A stretch of DNA of 64,000 nucleotides from an uncultured Candidatus Saccharibacteria bacterium. GTDB taxonomy: Bacteria; Patescibacteriota; Minisyncoccia; Phycocordibacterales; UBA9973. Within the stretch, counting starts at the first letter, position 1. Each line of letters begins with the position of its first letter. The notes beneath the pieces are model-generated. The model made no database searches and was not told where the DNA came from. It worked only from the letters and a program-made list of their open reading frames with translations. Positions 14,021 to 49,151 of this stretch are shown piece after piece. Location: positions 1,732 to 65,731 of the forward strand of contig CAYREQ010000001.1 in NCBI GenBank assembly GCA_964423445.1, read 5' to 3'. Position numbers and translations under genes: made by a program.

Positions 14021-15190
14021 ATGAAGCAAAACAAGCAAACAGTATTTGTGGGACTTTCAGGTGGGGTGGACAGCGCTGTGTCTGCCACTTTGCTAAAAAA
14101 TAGTGGTTATGAGGTAGTGGGAGTTTTCATAAAGACTTGGCACCCAGACTTTATAGAATGCAATGAAGAAGATGAAAAGAGAGACGCTATGCGTGTAGCC
14201 GCGTATTTAGATATACCATTTTTGACCCTAGACCTAGAAGATGTATATAAAAAAGAAGTCGCAGACTATATGATAAGAGAGTATGAAGCTGGTAGAACTC
14301 CAAATCCAGATGTCATGTGCAATAAGGAAGTAAAGTTTGGAGCGTTCTTAAAAAAAGCACTTTCTATGGGGGCTGATTTTGTGGCGACAGGGCATTATGC
14401 ACAGCGGGTACAGAAAAATTCTTCCGCTTTACCCGCAAGTGGGCTCCGACACGGACAGAATTTTTCTGTACCCGCTGTGCTGGGGAAAGGCGTAGACCCA
14501 AGCAAAGACCAAAGTTATTTTCTTTGGACTTTAAATCAAAAACAATTATCTAAAATTTTATTTCCTATTGGGCATCTAAAGAAGACAGAAGTTAGAAAAT
14601 TGGCGAAAAAATTTAAATTACCTGTAGCAGAAAAACATGATAGTCAAGGTATTTGTTTTTTGGGTGCGATTGATTTAAAAGAATTTTTAAAGCATTACAT
14701 AAAATCAAAGAAGGGCAAAGTTCTAAATACGGAAGGGGAAGTGATAGGTCATCATGATGGAGCTGTATTTCATACGCTCGGAGAAAGACATGGTTTTGTA
14801 ATTACTAAAAAGAGTCCAAATGATGGAGCTTATTATGTGGTAGCTAAAGATATAAAGAAAAATATTTTGGTTGTGTCGCAGAAAAATGAGAAAGATACTT
14901 TTTCTCAGTCGCTCGGTCCCTCACTGCGTTCAGCCACTCCTTCTAAAAAGCACATTTCTCATTTTTCTGTAGATTTGGAAAATCCAAATTGGATTTCAGA
15001 AATTCCACAAGAAAATAAAAACTACACAGCGCAAGTTCGTTATCATGGAGAATTTTTACATTGTAAAATTAAAATCAAAACAAAAGACAGTGCAGAGATA
15101 ATTTTTGAAAAACCAGTTTTGGTAGCGAGCGGTCAATCTATAGTAGTCTATGATGATGACATTTGCCTAGGTGGTGGAGTAGTTGTATAA
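14021..15190 (+). CDS. mnmA: tRNA-specific 2-thiouridylase MnmA, carrying an in-frame insertion of a repeat element
   Basis: PP-loop VFVGLSGGVDSAVSA; TGHYA and KDQSYFLW motifs; the repeat at 14399-14480 lies between these two motifs. Confidence 0.9.
   Translation: MKQNKQTVFVGLSGGVDSAVSATLLKNSGYEVVGVFIKTWHPDFIECNEEDEKRDAMRVAAYLDIPFLTLDLEDVYKKEVADYMIREYEAGRTPNPDVMCNKEVKFGAFLKKALSMGADFVATGHYAQRVQKNSSALPASGLRHGQNFSVPAVLGKGVDPSKDQSYFLWTLNQKQLSKILFPIGHLKKTEVRKLAKKFKLPVAEKHDSQGICFLGAIDLKEFLKHYIKSKKGKVLNTEGEVIGHHDGAVFHTLGERHGFVITKKSPNDGAYYVVAKDIKKNILVVSQKNEKDTFSQSLGPSLRSATPSKKHISHFSVDLENPNWISEIPQENKNYTAQVRYHGEFLHCKIKIKTKDSAEIIFEKPVLVASGQSIVVYDDDICLGGGVVV
14399..14480 (+). repeat. copy A of a GC-rich core element inside a perfect 24-bp inverted repeat, in-frame within mnmA
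   Basis: gcacagcgggtacagaaaaattct [tccgctttacccgcaagtgggctccgacacggac] agaatttttctgtacccgctgtgc; the core is related to the copies at 40724-40759 and 42300-42335. Confidence 0.8.
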
Positions 15191-37216: not shown

Positions 37217-38590
37217 TTATATTTTGTAAACCCTCTGTCCGTCGCTAGTATCTTTTACTTCAAAACCGAGATTGTTTATTTCTTTTCTTAATTCGTCAGA
37301 TTTTGTATAGTCTGTATTTTTTCTAGCTGCCTCTCTTTCTTTTACAAGTTCTAAAATATTTTCTGGTATTGTTTCTTCTTTCAAATTTTCAAACCCAAGG
37401 CCGAGTACTTTATCAAAATCAAGCACAGTAGCTTTTTTATCAGCATTAGATATTTTCTCATCTTTCAACAAATCCCAAAGCACTGTGAGGGCTCGTGGTG
37501 TATCTAAGTCATCGTCTATAAAATTTTTGAATTTCTGCTGATATTCTTTGTTTATTTCCCCAGATTCCTCTCCCAGCATTAAATACATATTATAAAGGCG
37601 TTTTAGGGCAGTCTCAGCACCTTCTAGGGCATCCCAGTTGAAGTTTACCTTGGTTCGATAGCTTGCCATTAAAAGTAAAAAACGATAGGTGAGGGGATTT
37701 ATATTTTTTTCTATTAGACTTCCCAGTTTTAAAAAGTTCCCAGCTGATTTTGCCATTTTTGCACCAGCTACATCTACATGCTCACTATGTATCCAGAATT
37801 TTACAAAAGGTTTTTTGCCTGTAGCAGATTCTGATTGAGCAATTTCATTTGTATGGTGTGTGGGAATAAGATCAATTCCTCCAGTATGAATATCAAATTG
37901 TTCAGCCAAAAACTTCATACCAATAGCCGAACATTCTATATGCCATCCAGGAAAACCTTTACCCCATTTTGAGTCGTAGCCAATTTTTGAATTGAATTTC
38001 CAAAGTGCAAAATCTTCAGGATTTTTTTTCTCTGGGTTTTCAGCAATTCGTGCATGATCTTCATCGCGGGCTATTTTACCCCCAGTCAGTATCCCGTAAT
38101 CAGCCATTTTCGCTGTATCAAAATAAAGTCCATCGCTGGTTTTGTATGCGTATCCTTTTTCTTCCAATTTCTCTACGAGCTCTGCATCTTCTGTTACATA
38201 GTCACTCGCAAAATAAATATTCTTTGGAACTTCAATATTTAGCCTAGTTAAATCATCCTTGAATTTTTCTGTGTAAAATTCTGCGAGCTCACGCATATTT
38301 TTAAGTGTAAGCTCTTTTCCTTCACGCACTAGTGCAGCAGTCATTTTGTCTTCACCAGTATCTGCATCACTAGACATAATACCTATGTCTGTAATATTCA
38401 TTACTCTTTTTACTCGGTATCCAGAATATTCTAAAGTTTTTTGTAATACATCAGCAAATACATATGCACGCAGGTTTCCTATGTGGGCATAGTTGTTTAC
38501 CGTAGGTCCGCAACTATAAAAAGTCACCTCATCTTTATTGATAGGTATAAATTCTTCTTTTTTTCTACCGAGAGTGTTGTAAAGTTTCAT
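37217..38590 (-). CDS. cysS: cysteine--tRNA ligase
   Basis: HIGH-type motif CGPTVNNYAHIGNLRAY and KMSKS-type KMAKSAGN; a Zn-binding Cys is present. Confidence 0.9.
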   Translation of the reverse strand: MKLYNTLGRKKEEFIPINKDEVTFYSCGPTVNNYAHIGNLRAYVFADVLQKTLEYSGYRVKRVMNITDIGIMSSDADTGEDKMTAALVREGKELTLKNMRELAEFYTEKFKDDLTRLNIEVPKNIYFASDYVTEDAELVEKLEEKGYAYKTSDGLYFDTAKMADYGILTGGKIARDEDHARIAENPEKKNPEDFALWKFNSKIGYDSKWGKGFPGWHIECSAIGMKFLAEQFDIHTGGIDLIPTHHTNEIAQSESATGKKPFVKFWIHSEHVDVAGAKMAKSAGNFLKLGSLIEKNINPLTYRFLLLMASYRTKVNFNWDALEGAETALKRLYNMYLMLGEESGEINKEYQQKFKNFIDDDLDTPRALTVLWDLLKDEKISNADKKATVLDFDKVLGLGFENLKEETIPENILELVKEREAARKNTDYTKSDELRKEINNLGFEVKDTSDGQRVYKI

Positions 38591-38603
38591 TTCTAAAAAG
38601 TAC

Positions 38604-39629
38604 TTATGAGACTATGTTTTGATTAAATTCATTTCTGTATATTGAAATGAGGGAGTAGAGCAGACTGATTACCAGTGGCCCTACTAGTACACCTACAGGA
38701 CCCAAGAAAGAAATACCACCCAATACAGAAAACAAAATCAAGATAGATGGGATGTTCATTTTTCTTCCGACTACGAGTGGTCCGAGCAGATTGTCTATGA
38801 GCCCTACGATGACCACAGACCAAACCAAAAGGCCGACAGCTCCTGTCGTGTTTCCAGTAGCGAAAAGAAAAATGATAGCAGGTATAGATACGAGTGAAGT
38901 ACCAAATGTCGGAATAAAAGACATCACAGCAGCGACTACTCCCCAGAGTGCTCCATTTGGAACATTGAAAATCCAAAAACCAAAACCAAGCAATATACCT
39001 TGTGCGAGAGCTATAAGTAGTGAACCTTTGACTACTCCATTTACTGCCAAAGTTAGTCTAGAGATTATTCTCTCGTCATCTTCTTTTACGAGTGGACTAA
39101 GCGAGATGATAGATTCTCGCCATCTTGCTCCATCTTTTAGTAAATAAAAAATAATTAAGAGCATTAATATAAATGAAAAGAATGCAGAAATTGTGCTACT
39201 AAAAATAGTAGTGATATGGCTAGATAAATACGATACAAACTCTGTAGCTTTTTGGTTTATGTCAAAAACTACACCGTCTGGCAAGACATTGTTTACTTTG
39301 TAGTTTATTTTTTCCAAAATTGGGGAAGTATTCAAATCACTACTCAAGACTTTTTGGTAAACACTCTGGCTTTGTTTGAAAACCAAAGCACCGATACCAA
39401 GTAAGGGGCCACACACTAAAATAGTAAATAGAACTACTGTGATTAATGCAGATAAAGTCTCAGGAATTCCTTTTTTTGAGAGCCATTCATATATAGGATA
39501 TAGAACTATTGAAAAGGATATTCCGAGTACGATTATTATCCAAAAAGGTTGGAAAATTAGGAAAGTAAAAATAAACGTTCCGAGCAATAGCCCAAAGAAG
39601 AAGAACCTTTCTATTATTTTTGTTTGCAT
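38604..39629 (-). CDS. AI-2E family (PerM/UPF0118) transporter
   Basis: 8-TM architecture with AI-2E-like conserved blocks. The track ORF runs to 39809 and would overlap rplU, so the ATG at 39629 (MQTKIIERFFFF) is preferred. Confidence 0.55.
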   Translation of the reverse strand: MQTKIIERFFFFGLLLGTFIFTFLIFQPFWIIIVLGISFSIVLYPIYEWLSKKGIPETLSALITVVLFTILVCGPLLGIGALVFKQSQSVYQKVLSSDLNTSPILEKINYKVNNVLPDGVVFDINQKATEFVSYLSSHITTIFSSTISAFFSFILMLLIIFYLLKDGARWRESIISLSPLVKEDDERIISRLTLAVNGVVKGSLLIALAQGILLGFGFWIFNVPNGALWGVVAAVMSFIPTFGTSLVSIPAIIFLFATGNTTGAVGLLVWSVVIVGLIDNLLGPLVVGRKMNIPSILILFSVLGGISFLGPVGVLVGPLVISLLYSLISIYRNEFNQNIVS

Positions 39630-39663
39630 AGCATCATTGTAGCAAAAACCCTGCCTGAGACCA

Positions 39664-39710
39664 AGCCCAAATGGCCTCGGGGTTGCTTTTTTACGAAATA
39701 TCCTATAATA
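39664..39710 (+). promoter_or_regulatory. putative sigma-70 promoter for rplU (TATAAT at 39702-39707 preceded by TTGCTT)
   Basis: Sequence motif only; the -10 element lies 14 nt before the rplU ATG, so the 5'UTR would be very short. Confidence 0.3.
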
Positions 39711-39720
39711 TATAGACCAT

Positions 39721-40056
39721 ATGAAAACAGAGGAATTTGCAGTAATAAAGACAGGCGGAAAGCAATACAAGGTCTCAAAAGGGGCCGTTATTTCTATTGA
39801 AAAGATCAAAAATGCTAAGGCTGATTACAAGAAAGGGGACAAGCTTACTTTTGATAAAGTATTGCTTGTAGATAGTGGCAAAGACGTGACTATCGGTACA
39901 CCTTATATAGATGGAGCAAAAGTAGAGGCTGAAATCTTAGAGGTTGGCCGTGCTCGAAAAATTCTTGTTGTAAAATATAAACAAAAATCTCGATACCTAC
40001 GAAGGAACGGGCACAGACAGCCTTTCTTTAAGATTAAAGTTACTTCTATAAACTAA
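39721..40056 (+). CDS. rplU: 50S ribosomal protein L21
   Basis: MKTEEFAVIKTGGKQYKVSKGAVISIEKI... Confidence 0.9.
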   Translation: MKTEEFAVIKTGGKQYKVSKGAVISIEKIKNAKADYKKGDKLTFDKVLLVDSGKDVTIGTPYIDGAKVEAEILEVGRARKILVVKYKQKSRYLRRNGHRQPFFKIKVTSIN

Positions 40057-40057
40057 T

Positions 40058-40087
40058 AAAAAAACCACTCGAGAGAGTGGTTTTTTT
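40058..40087. terminator. bidirectional terminator aaaaaaccactc-gaga-gagtggttttttt between rplU and recR
   Basis: Hairpin with A-runs and T-runs on opposite sides. Confidence 0.65.
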
Positions 40088-40700
40088 ATTGCCTATTTTT
40101 TAGGGCATTTTTTAGAGTGTCGTTGTCAGAGTATTCTAGCTCGGTGCCGGTGGAAAGACCTTTGCCTAATGATGATATTTTTATGTTTTGTTTTTCTGCA
40201 ATATCTTTTATTTGTTCGCGGACATATTGGTCAGTATAGTCACCTTGAGGGGACAATGAAAAAGCTATGATTATTTCTTGTAACCCACCAGAGGCAGACG
40301 AGATTTTCTTTTTTAATTCTTCAATACGTACTCGGCTTTTGGTATTTTTTTCTACTATCGGCACCAATCCACCCAAGATAAAATATTTTCCATTATAAAC
40401 TCCACTTTTTTCTACGCTCTCTAGGTCCGAATCTTTTTCTACTATCATGAGAGTACTCGCATCTATGTTTGGATTACTACAAATCTCACAGATAGTACTT
40501 TTTGTTTTTGTATTTAAAAAGAATTTATAACATTCCTTACATTGAGATACTTCTCTTTTCAGCTCCAAGACGAGCTTGCTCAAGCTTTCTGCATAGTTTG
40601 GATTTTTAAACATCAGGAAATAAACAAAACGCCTTGCTTGACGCTCCCCAATACCTGGAAAATCTTTAAATACTTCAGTTAATTTGTCTATTATGTCCAT
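40086..40700 (-). CDS. recR: recombination protein RecR
   Basis: C4 zinc finger CKECYKF...CEIC and a Toprim domain; 204 aa. Confidence 0.9.
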   Translation of the reverse strand: MDIIDKLTEVFKDFPGIGERQARRFVYFLMFKNPNYAESLSKLVLELKREVSQCKECYKFFLNTKTKSTICEICSNPNIDASTLMIVEKDSDLESVEKSGVYNGKYFILGGLVPIVEKNTKSRVRIEELKKKISSASGGLQEIIIAFSLSPQGDYTDQYVREQIKDIAEKQNIKISSLGKGLSTGTELEYSDNDTLKNALKNRQ

Positions 40701-40706
40701 AACTTT

Positions 40707-40776
40707 ATAAGTATAGCAAAAATTCGCCGCTTTACCCTAAAGGGCTCCGACACGGACTCATTTTTGCTATACTTAT
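40707..40776 (+). repeat. copy B of the GC-rich core element: 36-nt core inside a perfect 17-bp inverted repeat, between the recR start and the dnaB stop
   Basis: ataagtatagcaaaaat [tcgccgctttaccctaaagggctccgacacggactc] atttttgctatacttat. Confidence 0.85.
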
Positions 40777-40780
40777 CTTA

Positions 40781-42205
40781 CTAGAATTCATCTAAATCAC
40801 CACTAATTTTTGATGGTGAAAATTCACTTAGGTTGCTCTTTTCAAGGTTTAGGAAAGTAGTAGTCTTTTCATCAAAGTACAATTCTACTTTTCCTGTCGG
40901 ACCATTTCGGTGTTTTTCTACTAGGATTTCAGCGATATTTGTCTTATCCATGGCATCTTTTCCTTTGTCTTCACGGTGGATAAACATTACTACATCGGCA
41001 TCCTGCTCGATTGATCCAGAGTCACGGAGGTCAGACAGTCTTGGTCGTCCACCACGAGATTCTACTGCACGAGAGAGCTGTGACAGTGCAAGCACTGGAA
41101 CATTTAGCTCTTTTGCTAGGCCCTTTAGTGAGCGAGATATCTCAGTGACTTGGTTTACCATAGAGTCATAATTTTTACTTGTAGTCATCAGCTGGAGGTA
41201 ATCTACCACGATTAGGTCCACACCTTTTTCTGCTTTGATTCGGCGTGCTAGAGATTTCATTCGAACGATAGAATTTCCAGCTTGGTCGTCAATAAATATT
41301 TTTGCTTTAGCGAGCTTGTCCAGTGAATCACGAAGTTGAGAAAATTCTCTGTCTGATGAAAGATTTCCTGTACGTAGGTTCCATGCGTTTACTCTAGATT
41401 GTGCTGAGAGCATTCGGTCTACGAGTTGTTGTGAAGACATTTCGAGAGAGAATATAAGTACAGACTTGTCGTGGTTTACAGCAGCTAGTCGTGACATGTC
41501 TAGGGCGAGGGTAGTCTTTCCCATACTTGGTCGAGCAGCGAGAATAATCAAATCAGAATCTTGAAAACCAGACAGCATAGAATCCAAATCTTTAAAACCA
41601 GTAGGTAGACCGCGAAGCATACCTTTGTTTTCGTGAAGTTTTTCCAAGCGTTCATAGGCTTCACCGAGTTCATCCTTTAGGTTTACAAATTTTTGATTTT
41701 TTGGACTTGAGACTACACTAAAAATTCTTTTTTCTGCCAAATCTAAAATATCATTCATGTGGTCGTCGCCCTCTTCAAAAGCAAGCTCGGACACATAGTC
41801 TGCTGCTTCAATTAGACTTCGAAGGACATATTTTTTTTGCACGATATCGGCATAGTGTTTTACGTTTGTAGAAGATGGCACAGTGTTTACTATCTCAGCT
41901 AGGTATTGATTTCCACCTATATTGTTTAGCAACTTTTGCTCACTCAATTTTGTAGAGAGCGAGAGCATATCTATAGGCTCGTTCTTTGAAGACAGATCAA
42001 GCATAGCCTTAAAAATAATTTTATGTTTTTCAGCATAAAAAGAATCAGGAGTAATCATGTCTTCTACCTCGTGCATAGCGTCTTTGCGTAGCATTATAGA
42101 TCCGAGTACTGCTTGCTCTGAAGGCATACTCTGTGGTGGTAGTCTCAAATTATTTTGTCTTGGTTTTTGTACGTCGTTTCTTCTATTGTTTTCTCCTTTT
42201 ACCAT
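40781..42205 (-). CDS. dnaB: replicative DNA helicase DnaB
   Basis: Walker A ARPSMGKTTLAL; DYLQLM; the RecA-like C-terminal domain plus the N-terminal helicase domain. Confidence 0.9.
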   Translation of the reverse strand: MVKGENNRRNDVQKPRQNNLRLPPQSMPSEQAVLGSIMLRKDAMHEVEDMITPDSFYAEKHKIIFKAMLDLSSKNEPIDMLSLSTKLSEQKLLNNIGGNQYLAEIVNTVPSSTNVKHYADIVQKKYVLRSLIEAADYVSELAFEEGDDHMNDILDLAEKRIFSVVSSPKNQKFVNLKDELGEAYERLEKLHENKGMLRGLPTGFKDLDSMLSGFQDSDLIILAARPSMGKTTLALDMSRLAAVNHDKSVLIFSLEMSSQQLVDRMLSAQSRVNAWNLRTGNLSSDREFSQLRDSLDKLAKAKIFIDDQAGNSIVRMKSLARRIKAEKGVDLIVVDYLQLMTTSKNYDSMVNQVTEISRSLKGLAKELNVPVLALSQLSRAVESRGGRPRLSDLRDSGSIEQDADVVMFIHREDKGKDAMDKTNIAEILVEKHRNGPTGKVELYFDEKTTTFLNLEKSNLSEFSPSKISGDLDEF

Positions 42206-42281
42206 GAAAGCATTTTAACATAGTCAGGAAATTGTGAAAGCTTAAAAGTGCGTAAGACTGTTATTAAAATGTGGAAAGTTT

Positions 42282-42353
42282 AGCAGGTAAAGTAAAAATT
42301 CGCCGCTTTACCCTAAAGGGCTCCGACACGAACTCATTTTTACTTTACCTGCT
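42282..42353 (+). repeat. copy C of the GC-rich core element: core differs from copy B by 1 nt, inside a perfect 18-bp inverted repeat, between the dnaB start and the trpS start
   Basis: agcaggtaaagtaaaaat [tcgccgctttaccctaaagggctccgacacgaactc] atttttactttacctgct. Confidence 0.85.
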
Positions 42354-42373
42354 CTACATGATAAGATATTATC

Positions 42374-43324
42374 ATGTCTAAAAAGGTATTATTGTCAGGA
42401 GTAAAGCCTACAGGTCGCCCACATCTGGGCAACTATTTTGGTGCCATGAAGCAATTCGTGGATTTATCATCAGATTACGACAGTTATGTATTTATTGCTG
42501 ATTATCACGCACTCAATTTTATACAAAACAAGGAAGAGATGAGAGAAAACATAATCGGGGTTTTGCTCGATTATTTAGCTGTAGGTCTCGATCCAAAAAA
42601 AGTTTGCATATTCAAACAAAGTGATATTTCTGAACACACAGAGCTGGCTTGGATTTTTGATACTATCACTACTATGCCATATCTCATGCGTGCACATGCT
42701 TTCAAAGATGCAGAAGCTAAAAATAAAGAAATCGTAGTAGGTACTTTCAATTATCCGATGCTGATGGCTGCAGATATCTTACTCTACAGTCCAGACATAG
42801 TTCCAGTAGGTCAAGATCAGCAACAACACGTAGAAATCACTAGAGACGTAGCTCAAAAGTTCAATAATACTTTTGGAGAAGTTTTTAAATTACCAGAACA
42901 TAAAATAATGAAAGAAGTAGCCGTAGTTCCTGGTACAGACGGACAAAAGATGAGTAAAAGCTATAACAATACTATTCCACTCTTTGCTGAATATGAAGAA
43001 ATAAAAAAAGCTGTGATGGGCATAGTCACAGACTCAAGCGGAGATATTCCAAAAAATGTTTTTGCCATACATAAACTCATCCGACCAGAGGCTGAACTCG
43101 CTCCAATATATGAAGAAAAAAAGGGTAGCTACAAAGAACTAAAAGAGCTACTAATAGAAGACTTGGAAAAATTTATAGCTCCAATGCGAGAAAAGAGAAA
43201 AGAATTTGAAAAAGATATTCCGAGCGCACTAGCAATACTAAAAGCCGGTGGAGAAAAAGCTAAAGCTGTAGCTAATGCAAAAATGCAAGAAGTTCGCGAA
43301 AAAATTGGAGTTAGTGTATATTAA
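42374..43324 (+). CDS. trpS: tryptophan--tRNA ligase
   Basis: HIGH-type motif TGRPHLGNY and KMSKS. Confidence 0.9.
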   Translation: MSKKVLLSGVKPTGRPHLGNYFGAMKQFVDLSSDYDSYVFIADYHALNFIQNKEEMRENIIGVLLDYLAVGLDPKKVCIFKQSDISEHTELAWIFDTITTMPYLMRAHAFKDAEAKNKEIVVGTFNYPMLMAADILLYSPDIVPVGQDQQQHVEITRDVAQKFNNTFGEVFKLPEHKIMKEVAVVPGTDGQKMSKSYNNTIPLFAEYEEIKKAVMGIVTDSSGDIPKNVFAIHKLIRPEAELAPIYEEKKGSYKELKELLIEDLEKFIAPMREKRKEFEKDIPSALAILKAGGEKAKAVANAKMQEVREKIGVSVY

Positions 43325-43434
43325 ATAAAATGAATAATAAATTTTTACAAATAAATAACTGGCAGTATTTCTTTAGCCCTTCTAATAGAAAGCTGCTTTT
43401 TGTGCTGTAAAAATATCTAAAAAACTTACAACCT

Positions 43435-48642: not shown

Positions 48643-48755
48643 AACTTTCTCCTATTTTAAAGAACAAATATTGTCGTTTTGTTTTGGGTAGACAAAGAAA
48701 AACCCCTTCCTAGAAACTTAGGAAGGGGATGTTTTCAAAAATTAATTTATGTAAA

Positions 48756-49151
48756 TTACGAGCTCAAAGACAACCCTTTCCTAAGTTTGGATGGGTTGTG
48801 GTGGTTTGATATACGAGACAATACGAGCCGATATCCGCCGAGTGAACCTTTTAACCATTTTGCTATGCGGGCAATAGTCGCAGACGAGAGACCAGTGTTT
48901 TCACTGATGGTATTGTATTGTATGTCTTTTGAGAGCAGGGAAGCTGCTTCGAGCCTGTTTGCAAATTCTTTTATTTCTAGTTCAGTCATGACATCTCGCA
49001 AGAAAGATTGCATCTCTTCTTTATTTTTCAAAGACAAAAAAGCTTGCACCAATTGTTGGTTTTTCTTTGTATTCCAATCTATCTTTGTGCCGATACCTTG
49101 GATCAGTTTTACTGTATCTATATTTGTATTTTTATTCATTCCTTTACTCAT
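48756..49151 (-). CDS. TrpR-like / YerC-YecD family DNA-binding protein
   Basis: FLRDVMTELEIKEFANRLEAASLL...ISENTGLSSATIARIAKWLK matches the Trp_repressor-fold HTH. The overlapping plus-strand ORF 48679-49164 is rejected. Confidence 0.65.
   Translation of the reverse strand: MSKGMNKNTNIDTVKLIQGIGTKIDWNTKKNQQLVQAFLSLKNKEEMQSFLRDVMTELEIKEFANRLEAASLLSKDIQYNTISENTGLSSATIARIAKWLKGSLGGYRLVLSRISNHHNPSKLRKGLSLSS

Follow-up and report, generated by a model that had tools for sequence, protein, structure and literature searches.

Rickettsia palindromic elements (RPEs) insert in-frame into open reading frames (ORFs), including that of PheT (PMC10969869, PMC1779305). [quoted passage not shown] Here we describe a family of short hairpin repeats, hereafter family 1, found in a 64,000-nucleotide stretch of DNA from an uncultured Candidatus Saccharibacteria bacterium (GCA_964423445.1, contig CAYREQ010000001.1, positions 1,732 to 65,731; hereafter the window). 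The window holds three copies, of which copy A lies within mnmA and copies B and C lie on either side of dnaB. Judged by their behavior, all three are probably copies of a palindromic repeat that is selfish and non-autonomous and works as RPEs do. The build of the repeat is atypical, with a conserved asymmetric core, fast-changing stems, an orientation bias, and a strand asymmetry in stem mismatches.

Copies in the window and their relatives

The window was scored at every position with a covariance model of family 1 (model R1). Exactly three copies were identified (14395-14481, 40698-40782, and 42274-42358; 87, 84, and 81 bits, respectively), and the next best score was 24 bits. Copies B and C contained the 37-nt core TTCGCCGCTTTACCCTAAAGGGCTCCGACACG[G/A]ACTC at 40723-40759 and 42299-42335, both on the + strand and with a single-base difference; no core match was found in 100 dinucleotide-preserving shuffles. 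The earlier note had described near-identical direct copies flanking dnaB, one in the recR/dnaB gap and the other between dnaB and trpS, and this description was confirmed by the coordinates and by the Pfam identities of the genes (Table 1).

In both copies, 36 nt of the core form the loop of a hairpin, with arms AAGTATAGCAAAAAT and ATTTTTGCTATACTT in copy B and AGCAGGTAAAGTAAAAAT and ATTTTTACTTTACCTGCT in copy C. Identity between the two was restricted to the core and the inner stem; only the innermost AAAAAT/ATTTTT was identical, and the outer 11-12 bp differed (~7/11 positions match), the remaining stems being unrelated. Copy B fills the 80-nt gap between the recR start and the dnaB stop, its whole unit extending over ~40702-40781 once a decayed terminal motif is included, and its core-sense strand is antisense to both dnaB and recR. 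Copy C occupies the spacer between the divergent genes dnaB and trpS, where it adjoins a conserved TNTCCACATTTTAATAAC motif.

Further copies were collected with the pattern CGCTTTACCC-N3-8-GGGCTCCGACA, which requires 21 exact bases, from a database containing one genome per species. A total of 68 matching stretches were found, 67 of them from assemblies of the candidate phyla radiation (CPR), labeled Candidatus Nomurabacteria, Paceibacterota, Patescibacteria, or 'Saccharibacteria' and including one labeled only 'uncultured bacterium'. The sole match outside the CPR, in a Rhodobacteraceae genome (L001:6800-6827), was a chance fit to the degenerate pattern and had no hairpin context. The collection comprised 71 distinct family copies, plus 10 copies with slightly diverged cores that were found by the covariance model in the flanks of the pattern loci; these data show membership in one dispersed family. 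Over the ~1 Mb searched, model scores were either 41-89 bits or below 25 bits, with few intermediate relics.

No real family copy was present in a viral collection, in which six matches to a loosened pattern were chance fragments, and a phage origin was rejected for lack of real copies. An Rfam scan of the window at gathering thresholds returned two tRNAs only, and a permissive scan of both strands of copy B, with E-values up to 10, returned chance-level matches only. Kink-turn, sarcin-ricin, twister, pistol, and hairpin-ribozyme motifs were compared by eye only; none fitted, and Rfam gave no match. With regard to the source organisms, several records (L002, L014, L021, and L067; CAYYJU01) and other records titled 'uncultured Candidatus Saccharibacteria' were 88% identical to the window over 5 kb. 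The nearest named homologs of their genes belong to Nomurabacteria/Paceibacterota, which casts doubt on the Saccharibacteria label of these titles.

The unit is non-coding and ~80-90 nt long. In every copy, CGCTTTACCC is followed by a small apical hairpin and then by GGGCTCCGACACG; a short inner helix and a long, AT-rich stem, in which the core is held, complete the build. Across the family, the core is nearly invariant, asymmetric, and GC-rich. The stem and loop of the apical hairpin vary compensatorily (CCC-TAAA-GGG, CCCG-CAAG-CGGG, CCCAG-AGTA-CTGGG, and CCCA-CAAG-TGGG). In the alignment of the 71 copies, standard pairs occupied 90.6% of cells, compared with 63% after shuffling and 31-51% with the partner columns slid, and changes on both sides of a pair were found in 434 cells vs 148 in shuffles. 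All 17 pairings in the long stem covaried. Over positions -11 to -20 of the stem, the two arms of one copy paired at 8.9/10 positions, whereas arms taken from different copies paired at 4.95/10, near the level of unstructured flanks. The stems are, as these data show, copy-specific yet complementary. Beyond ~30 nt from the core, no excess of complementarity was found in the flanks.

A motif resembling RCTTCRC (at most one mismatch to GCTTCGC) was found at the 5' end of 16/71 copies and at the 3' end of 19/71, and in none of the control flanks. The heptamer d(GCGAAGC) forms an ultra-stable mini-hairpin (PMC13037366). As an account of the ends it was weak, the exact heptamer being present at only 1-2/71 ends despite the enrichment of near matches.

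Some subfamilies have long stems in common at unrelated loci (GCAGGATTATTAAAAT... in L008, L062, L026, L035, and L058). An origin of the stems by copying of flanking host DNA, through inverted target duplication or fold-back synthesis, was rejected. The stem of copy B is absent from the empty site of L021, it corresponds to the family consensus stem decayed by transitions, and the flanks lack the excess complementarity considered above. Insertion into the loops of existing terminators fitted some copies (L048, L060, L022, and L007), but not copy B or the copies inside ORFs.

Sites and orientation of the copies

A copy was assigned to an ORF when the reading frame extended without a stop for 150 nt or more on each side. 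By this definition, 42/71 copies (59%) lie inside ORFs; all are stop-free and preserve the frame, so that they are read through. Three reading frames of the core are used, giving the peptides ALPASGLRHG, RFTLKGSDT, and PLYPQAGSDTDS, and conservation therefore operates at the nucleotide and not the protein level. The number of open sense frames per copy was 1.98 for ORF copies vs 1.24 for intergenic copies. The hosts are housekeeping genes, encoding PheT, LigA, UvrA, UvrC, LeuRS, IleRS, the CCA-adding enzyme, an FAD-linked oxidase, and MnmA.

Two of the tRNA synthetase reading frames in the collection had additional domains. One, for a leucyl-tRNA synthetase (L028:2079-5000), has a NUDIX domain embedded in it; the other, for an isoleucyl-tRNA synthetase (L043:3626-7783), also matches histidine-phosphatase and HD domains. 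If these reading frames are single genes, they represent unusual domain insertions or fusions in CPR synthetases.

The hairpins of intergenic copies begin 0-17 nt past the stop codon of the upstream gene. That such copies are the remains of split genes or introns was rejected, as the adjacent ORFs read, by eye from their terminal sequences, as different proteins. Among those identified by eye were trigger factor followed by ClpP, lysyl- followed by seryl-tRNA synthetase, RecA, and Obg.

The mnmA gene gave the clearest view of sites within a protein. Among 120 MnmA homologs, two fixed positions, one after GHYA and the other after VVSQ (window residues ~128-155 and 289-320), carry about ten unrelated insert families (e.g., SHGSHSILNMADRALVA, KNFPAFALGDKRTGDRHG, NFSAFLHPSGGTFRS, SSGRFRPKGGEKT, FLNGLAGGGTRRTEDL, and FPPDKGGLRGVEFKKP). 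Alleles with no insert at the site of copy A were found (P0014/L069 and P0048/L070), and some homologs are empty at one or both sites. At the first site, family 1 is present in two frames and apparently also in reverse orientation, RVGARLRVKR (P0044 and P0086; variant in P0082) matching the antisense reading in L033. The second hairpin within the window mnmA (family 2; peptide TFSQSLGPSLRSATPSKKHISHF) has a core unrelated to that of family 1 and is an element of the same kind from a different family. Family 2 is also present at the other MnmA hot spot in P0004, P0005, P0042, and P0101, and its stem peptide (KN.K.TF ... KKHISHF) is conserved between the two sites, unlike that of family 1. In the AlphaFold model of the window MnmA, the inserts are the two longest stretches with a predicted local distance difference test (pLDDT) score below 50 (residues 137-148 and 291-311); two four-residue stretches are also below 50. 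In addition, the seemingly empty allele at the second site of L071 (L071:1501-2619) holds an in-frame palindrome with a 13-bp stem, GACGTTGGACGTC...GACGTCCAACGTC; the second site may always hold some hairpin.

The orientation of the copies was strongly biased with respect to transcription. Inside ORFs, 40/42 copies are in sense, where stop codons alone predict 72% (p = 1.5e-4), and between co-directional genes 12/13 are in sense (p = 0.003), copy B being the sole exception; because orthologous copies are not independent, these p-values are optimistic, and by eye the ORF copies represent ~25 distinct sites, 23 of them in sense. Stem mismatches were likewise asymmetric. On the core-sense strand, 60 A.C mismatches were found vs 19 G.T, and the corresponding numbers for intergenic copies were 25 vs 2. 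In nearly all copies the more stable fold belongs to the complementary strand, which retains G.U pairs in place of the A.C of the sense strand, and its loops read GA/GA, GAA/GAA, GUCGGA/AAA, and, at the apex, CUUG. This better-folding strand is usually not the mRNA strand. Two accounts would fit the asymmetry: the active folded form may be that of the complementary strand, whether as single-stranded DNA or as RNA, or selection may weaken the hairpin in mRNA.

At the dnaB locus, synteny of the closest relative (L021) with the window extends over 37459-43325, with an identity of 87-89%. Copy B (~78 nt) is absent from L021, in which 2 nt separate the dnaB stop from the recR start. An orthologous copy C is present with compensatory changes in its stem. 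In L015, which is 77% identical, a diverged family-1 copy occupies the B junction in the same orientation as copy B. In the dnaB/trpS spacer of L015, L063, L137, and L123, a copy was found at exactly the position of copy C with its core reversed, and therefore dnaB is flanked by inverted and not direct copies there. The opposite core orientation at one spacer position reflects either independent insertions at one nucleotide position or in-place inversion of the hairpin loop. Orthologous sites thus differ, on direct comparison, in both the presence and the orientation of the element.

The comparison was extended to 80 further dnaB loci (L072-L151; DnaB 83-90% identical), in 2 of which family 1 was found within 2.5 kb of dnaB. 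The order dnaB-recR was retained at 79/80 loci, that is, at every one with a readable downstream gene, and recR starts 1-20 nt past the dnaB stop in most relatives. At 23/79 loci, the junction carries an insert of 56-185 nt, and grouping by eye placed these inserts in at least six hairpin families other than family 1 (for example, ACCCCCTCC...GGAGGGGGT, TTTACCCTGTTAAAT...ATTTAACAGGGTG, and GGATCCCGTTAGA...TCTAACGGG). Upstream of dnaB, a conserved motif, T(G/C)TCCACATTTTAATAAC, was found at 58/80 loci (window 42260-42277, - strand), which we take to resemble a DnaA box (TTATCCACA). The position just upstream of the conserved TNTCCACATTTTAATAAC motif before dnaB is filled by several hairpin families. 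Both boundaries of dnaB serve hairpin elements in general as landing sites, or are the only places where such elements are tolerated. The gene itself is a bystander; its bracketing is incidental, and no conserved association with the family was observed.

These comparisons bear on the interpretations that the earlier note had attached to the bracketing. Structural signals around dnaB, such as a terminator, an attenuator, or a protein-binding site, were not borne out. Copies in relatives lie in genes unrelated to dnaB (PheT, LigA, UvrA, UvrC, LeuRS, IleRS, and MnmA), and 42/71 copies are inside ORFs and not at gene boundaries, so that the idea failed by the refuting condition set in the note itself. 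No intrinsic-terminator pattern (GC-rich stem, 3-8-nt loop, and T run) was found on either strand of copies B or C, both of which have loops of 36 nt. The interpretations of the note were partly supported overall. Preferential insertion into intergenic, hairpin-prone sites, the more cautious of them, comes near to the data, the copies being insertions that accumulate at a few tolerated gene boundaries. The near-identity of B and C had been read as recent spread. This reading was not supported, since copy C is shared with L021, lineages of only 77% identity also have that spacer site filled, and the core is nearly invariant family-wide while the stems are unrelated.

Table 1. Coordinates and properties of the hairpins and genes discussed in the text.
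Feature	Position	Strand	Description
Copy A	14399-14480	+	Perfect 24-bp hairpin; core variant; in-frame within mnmA; 87.1 bits; encodes ...QKNSSALPASGLRHGQNF...
Copy B	40707-40776	+	Perfect 17-bp hairpin; arms 40707-40723 / 40760-40776; model score 83.8 bits
Copy C	42282-42353	+	Perfect 18-bp hairpin; arms 42282-42299 / 42336-42353; model score 81.2 bits
Family-2 hairpin	14879-14969	+	25-nt arms (88% complementary); 41-nt GC-rich loop; in-frame in mnmA (...TFSQSLGPSLRSATPSKKHISHF...)
mnmA	14021-15190	+	Identified by Pfam; host of copy A and the family-2 hairpin
recR	40086-40700	-	Pfam RecR; downstream of dnaB
dnaB	40781-42205	-	Pfam DnaB, DnaB_C; bracketed by copies B and C
trpS	42374-43324	+	Pfam class Ib Trp/Tyr-tRNA synthetase; divergent from dnaB
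Peptide across MnmA insert			KNSSALPASGLRHGQNF

Elsewhere in the window, a hairpin with 22-nt arms (86% complementary) and a 31-nt AT-rich loop was found at 48714-48788. It has no GC-rich core and was unmatched by the family model.

Explanations for the family

On the interpretation that we favor, a selfish RPE-like repeat, the family would enter the genome at many places and persist only where it is harmless. The tolerated places would be tiny intergenic spacers and permissive surface loops of proteins, and in the latter the element would be translated in-frame as an extra peptide of ~20-28 residues. On this account, dnaB would be bracketed because both of its boundaries are tolerated sites. 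The hairpin may be kept up by correction of one arm against the other through template switching within the quasipalindrome, or by selection, and the orientation bias may arise from transcription-tied insertion or from selection that keeps the stronger-folding, purine-loop strand out of mRNA. Copy B is absent from L021 and its stem is not derived from the flanks, which speaks for gain or loss of a whole unit. We infer that the family is selfish and spreads as a whole DNA unit.

Several observations weigh against this interpretation. The core is far better conserved than expected of a decaying selfish repeat: near-identical cores stand on unrelated stems within one genome, and few decayed relics fill the range between the family scores and the background. 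Copy A and the copy of L071, which was located via the protein and not via the DNA pattern, are identical at 16/16 bases of GGGCTCCGACACGGAC, in genes that are ~78% identical. Such conservation suggests nucleotide-level constraint or homogenization among copies, although it is partly a sampling artifact of the exact bases that the pattern demanded. No target-site duplication was established; in the one filled/empty pair (copy B vs L021, 88% identity) the junction is ambiguous, possibly TA or CTT, and no closer empty allele was found among the 80 dnaB loci. No parent insertion sequence or transposase turned up, no search having been aimed at one. Moreover, simple selfish DNA predicts neither the orientation bias nor the mismatch asymmetry.

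Identical cores on unrelated stems, replacement of one family by another, and the reversed core at one site leave room for the exchange of cores and the flipping of loops between resident hairpins. It is conceivable, if unlikely, that the family, together with the many sister families at the same sites, is the footprint of an undescribed, strand-specific hairpin-moving system in CPR bacteria. In such a system, a protein would recognize the conserved internal loop GUCGGA/AAA of the better-folding strand, a transcription-tied single-stranded intermediate would set the orientation, and fixed positions would see hairpins put in, swapped, or flipped.

A related explanation dispenses with transposition of whole units and assumes that cores pass from one hairpin to another, both already present at fragile or permissive sites, through gene conversion or template switching. 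The cores would thereby be homogenized while the stems stayed locus-specific, and one family could replace another, or a loop could flip, in place. Identical cores on unrelated stems within one genome agree with this, as do the different families held by the same nucleotide position in different lineages, the opposite core orientations of one family at one site, and the fast compensatory stem turnover between the window and L021. In plastid DNA, small inversions of hairpin loops are known to recur. Against it, copy B is present or absent as a whole hairpin unit and its empty site has no hairpin, long stems are common to unrelated loci in some subfamilies, as movement of whole units predicts, and no surplus of complementarity is seen in flanking DNA farther than ~30 nt from the core. 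We regard conversion between resident hairpins as quite unlikely.

The hairpins might also be structured elements selected for a function at each site, such as a binding site for a CPR protein or a hairpin acting in mRNA 3'-end formation, processing, or stability, with the internal loop GUCGGA/AAA on the complementary strand as the specific part. Near-invariance of the core while the stems covary, and conservation of core blocks at the orthologous junction in 77%-identical genomes, are both consistent with such a role. The same holds for the start of intergenic copies 0-17 nt past a stop codon, the orientation bias, and the complementary strand with its purine-rich internal loops (GA/GA and GAA/GAA), G.U pairs, and CUUG-type apical loop. 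A selected function is nonetheless rather improbable, given that over half of the copies interrupt an essential ORF, with three frames in use, that relatives are polymorphic at the sites, which unrelated families can fill instead, that the better-folding strand is usually not the mRNA, and that no Rfam match was found.

It is very unlikely that the functional product is a small structured RNA or self-cleaving ribozyme made from the complementary strand. That strand does have the more stable fold in nearly every copy, with G.U kept opposite A.C of the sense strand and loop motifs of the structured-RNA type; however, neither strand gave an Rfam match at E-values up to 10, no promoter evidence speaks for it, at dozens of sites the RNA would run antisense to an essential gene, and the mismatch asymmetry is equally explained by selection that weakens the mRNA hairpin.

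Host cis-acting signals for dnaB expression or replication are suggested by the occupation of both dnaB boundaries in the window and in L015 and by the DnaA-box-like motif next to copy C, but are largely refuted by the comparative data and extremely improbable: L021 has no copy B, 78/80 further loci have no family member, the copies of L015 are mutually inverted, unrelated hairpin families fill the same junctions in other lineages, most copies (42/71 inside ORFs) are in unrelated genes, and no terminator pattern was found. That ORF copies escape translation, by removal from the mRNA or by ribosome skipping (translational bypassing), is hardly credible even though a stable hairpin draws both flanks together and ribosomes bypass GC-rich palindromes in AT-rich mitochondrial genes of some yeasts, as neither process would require all 42 copies to be stop-free and frame-preserving, and the higher number of open sense frames in ORF copies is as expected if they are selected for translatability.

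Relation to known hairpin repeats

Members of the CPR (Patescibacteria) have among the smallest and most streamlined genomes, yet this lineage tolerates many hairpin-repeat families in its tightest gene junctions and in essential enzymes. Family 1 is an RPE-like hairpin repeat family with a conserved core and a variable stem, and the lineage has many families of that kind. A literature search revealed no account of elements like these from CPR bacteria; its coverage was incomplete and hence gives no proof of novelty. If the proposed interpretation holds, protein-coding palindromes, best known from Rickettsia, would also exist beyond that genus, and unusual extra segments of CPR proteins (ALPASGLRHG, RFTLKGSDT, and SQSLGPSLRSATPS) may be selfish DNA rather than adaptations. 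A strand-specific hairpin-moving system, if true, would imply continual remodeling of the surface loops of essential proteins in minimal genomes. The family also provides a natural data set on the maintenance of palindromes, with fast compensatory stem turnover, possible in-place loop inversion, and recurrent use of sites. Further, such elements will confuse gene calling, protein alignments, and RNA-motif searches in CPR genomes, and the family model can be used to flag them.

REP and REPIN sequences, which RAYT transposases mobilize, have strand-specific structures of single-stranded DNA and an orientation bias as part of their biology. They resemble family 1 as hairpin-forming repeats. In contrast, REP sequences are extragenic, 20-40 nt long, and tagged at the end by GTAG/CGTC, whereas family 1 is 59% intragenic, is ~80-90 nt long, lacks a GTAG/CGTC tag, has an RCTTCRC-like motif at the ends of a minority of copies, and is conserved in its loop. 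The GC clusters of yeast mitochondria are GC-rich palindromic inserts in AT-rich genomes, sometimes within protein-coding genes, and some are bypassed by the ribosome. These clusters are organellar and eukaryotic and in part ribosome-skipped, whereas every coding copy of family 1 keeps an open frame.

With MITEs, family 1 shares small, non-coding, multi-copy hairpin units, some of them in-frame within genes. In MITEs, the terminal repeats are conserved across copies and correspond to a parent insertion sequence, with target-site duplication as the rule, whereas the arms of family 1 differ between copies. Terminal inverted repeats conserved among copies were not observed here (pairing of 4.95/10 between copies vs 8.9/10 for own arms).

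The likeness to RPEs extends further. Both are short, interspersed palindromic repeats of small AT-rich genomes that are found in intergenic regions and in-frame in essential ORFs, where they are read through. In both, several families coexist, inserts are common to related species, and PheT is a host. The differences are that family 1 belongs to Patescibacteria and not to Rickettsiales, that its unit is ~80-90 nt compared with 100-150 bp for RPEs, that only the central core is conserved while the stems are copy-specific with compensatory change, that it has a strong orientation bias relative to transcription, and that one element is used in three reading frames. Judged by the features that define RPEs, MITEs, and REPs, and leaving homology to RPEs aside, family 1 falls into none of these classes. 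The comparison with RPEs was one of behavior and not of sequence, and the family is accordingly proposed to work like RPEs, with no claim that the two are homologous.

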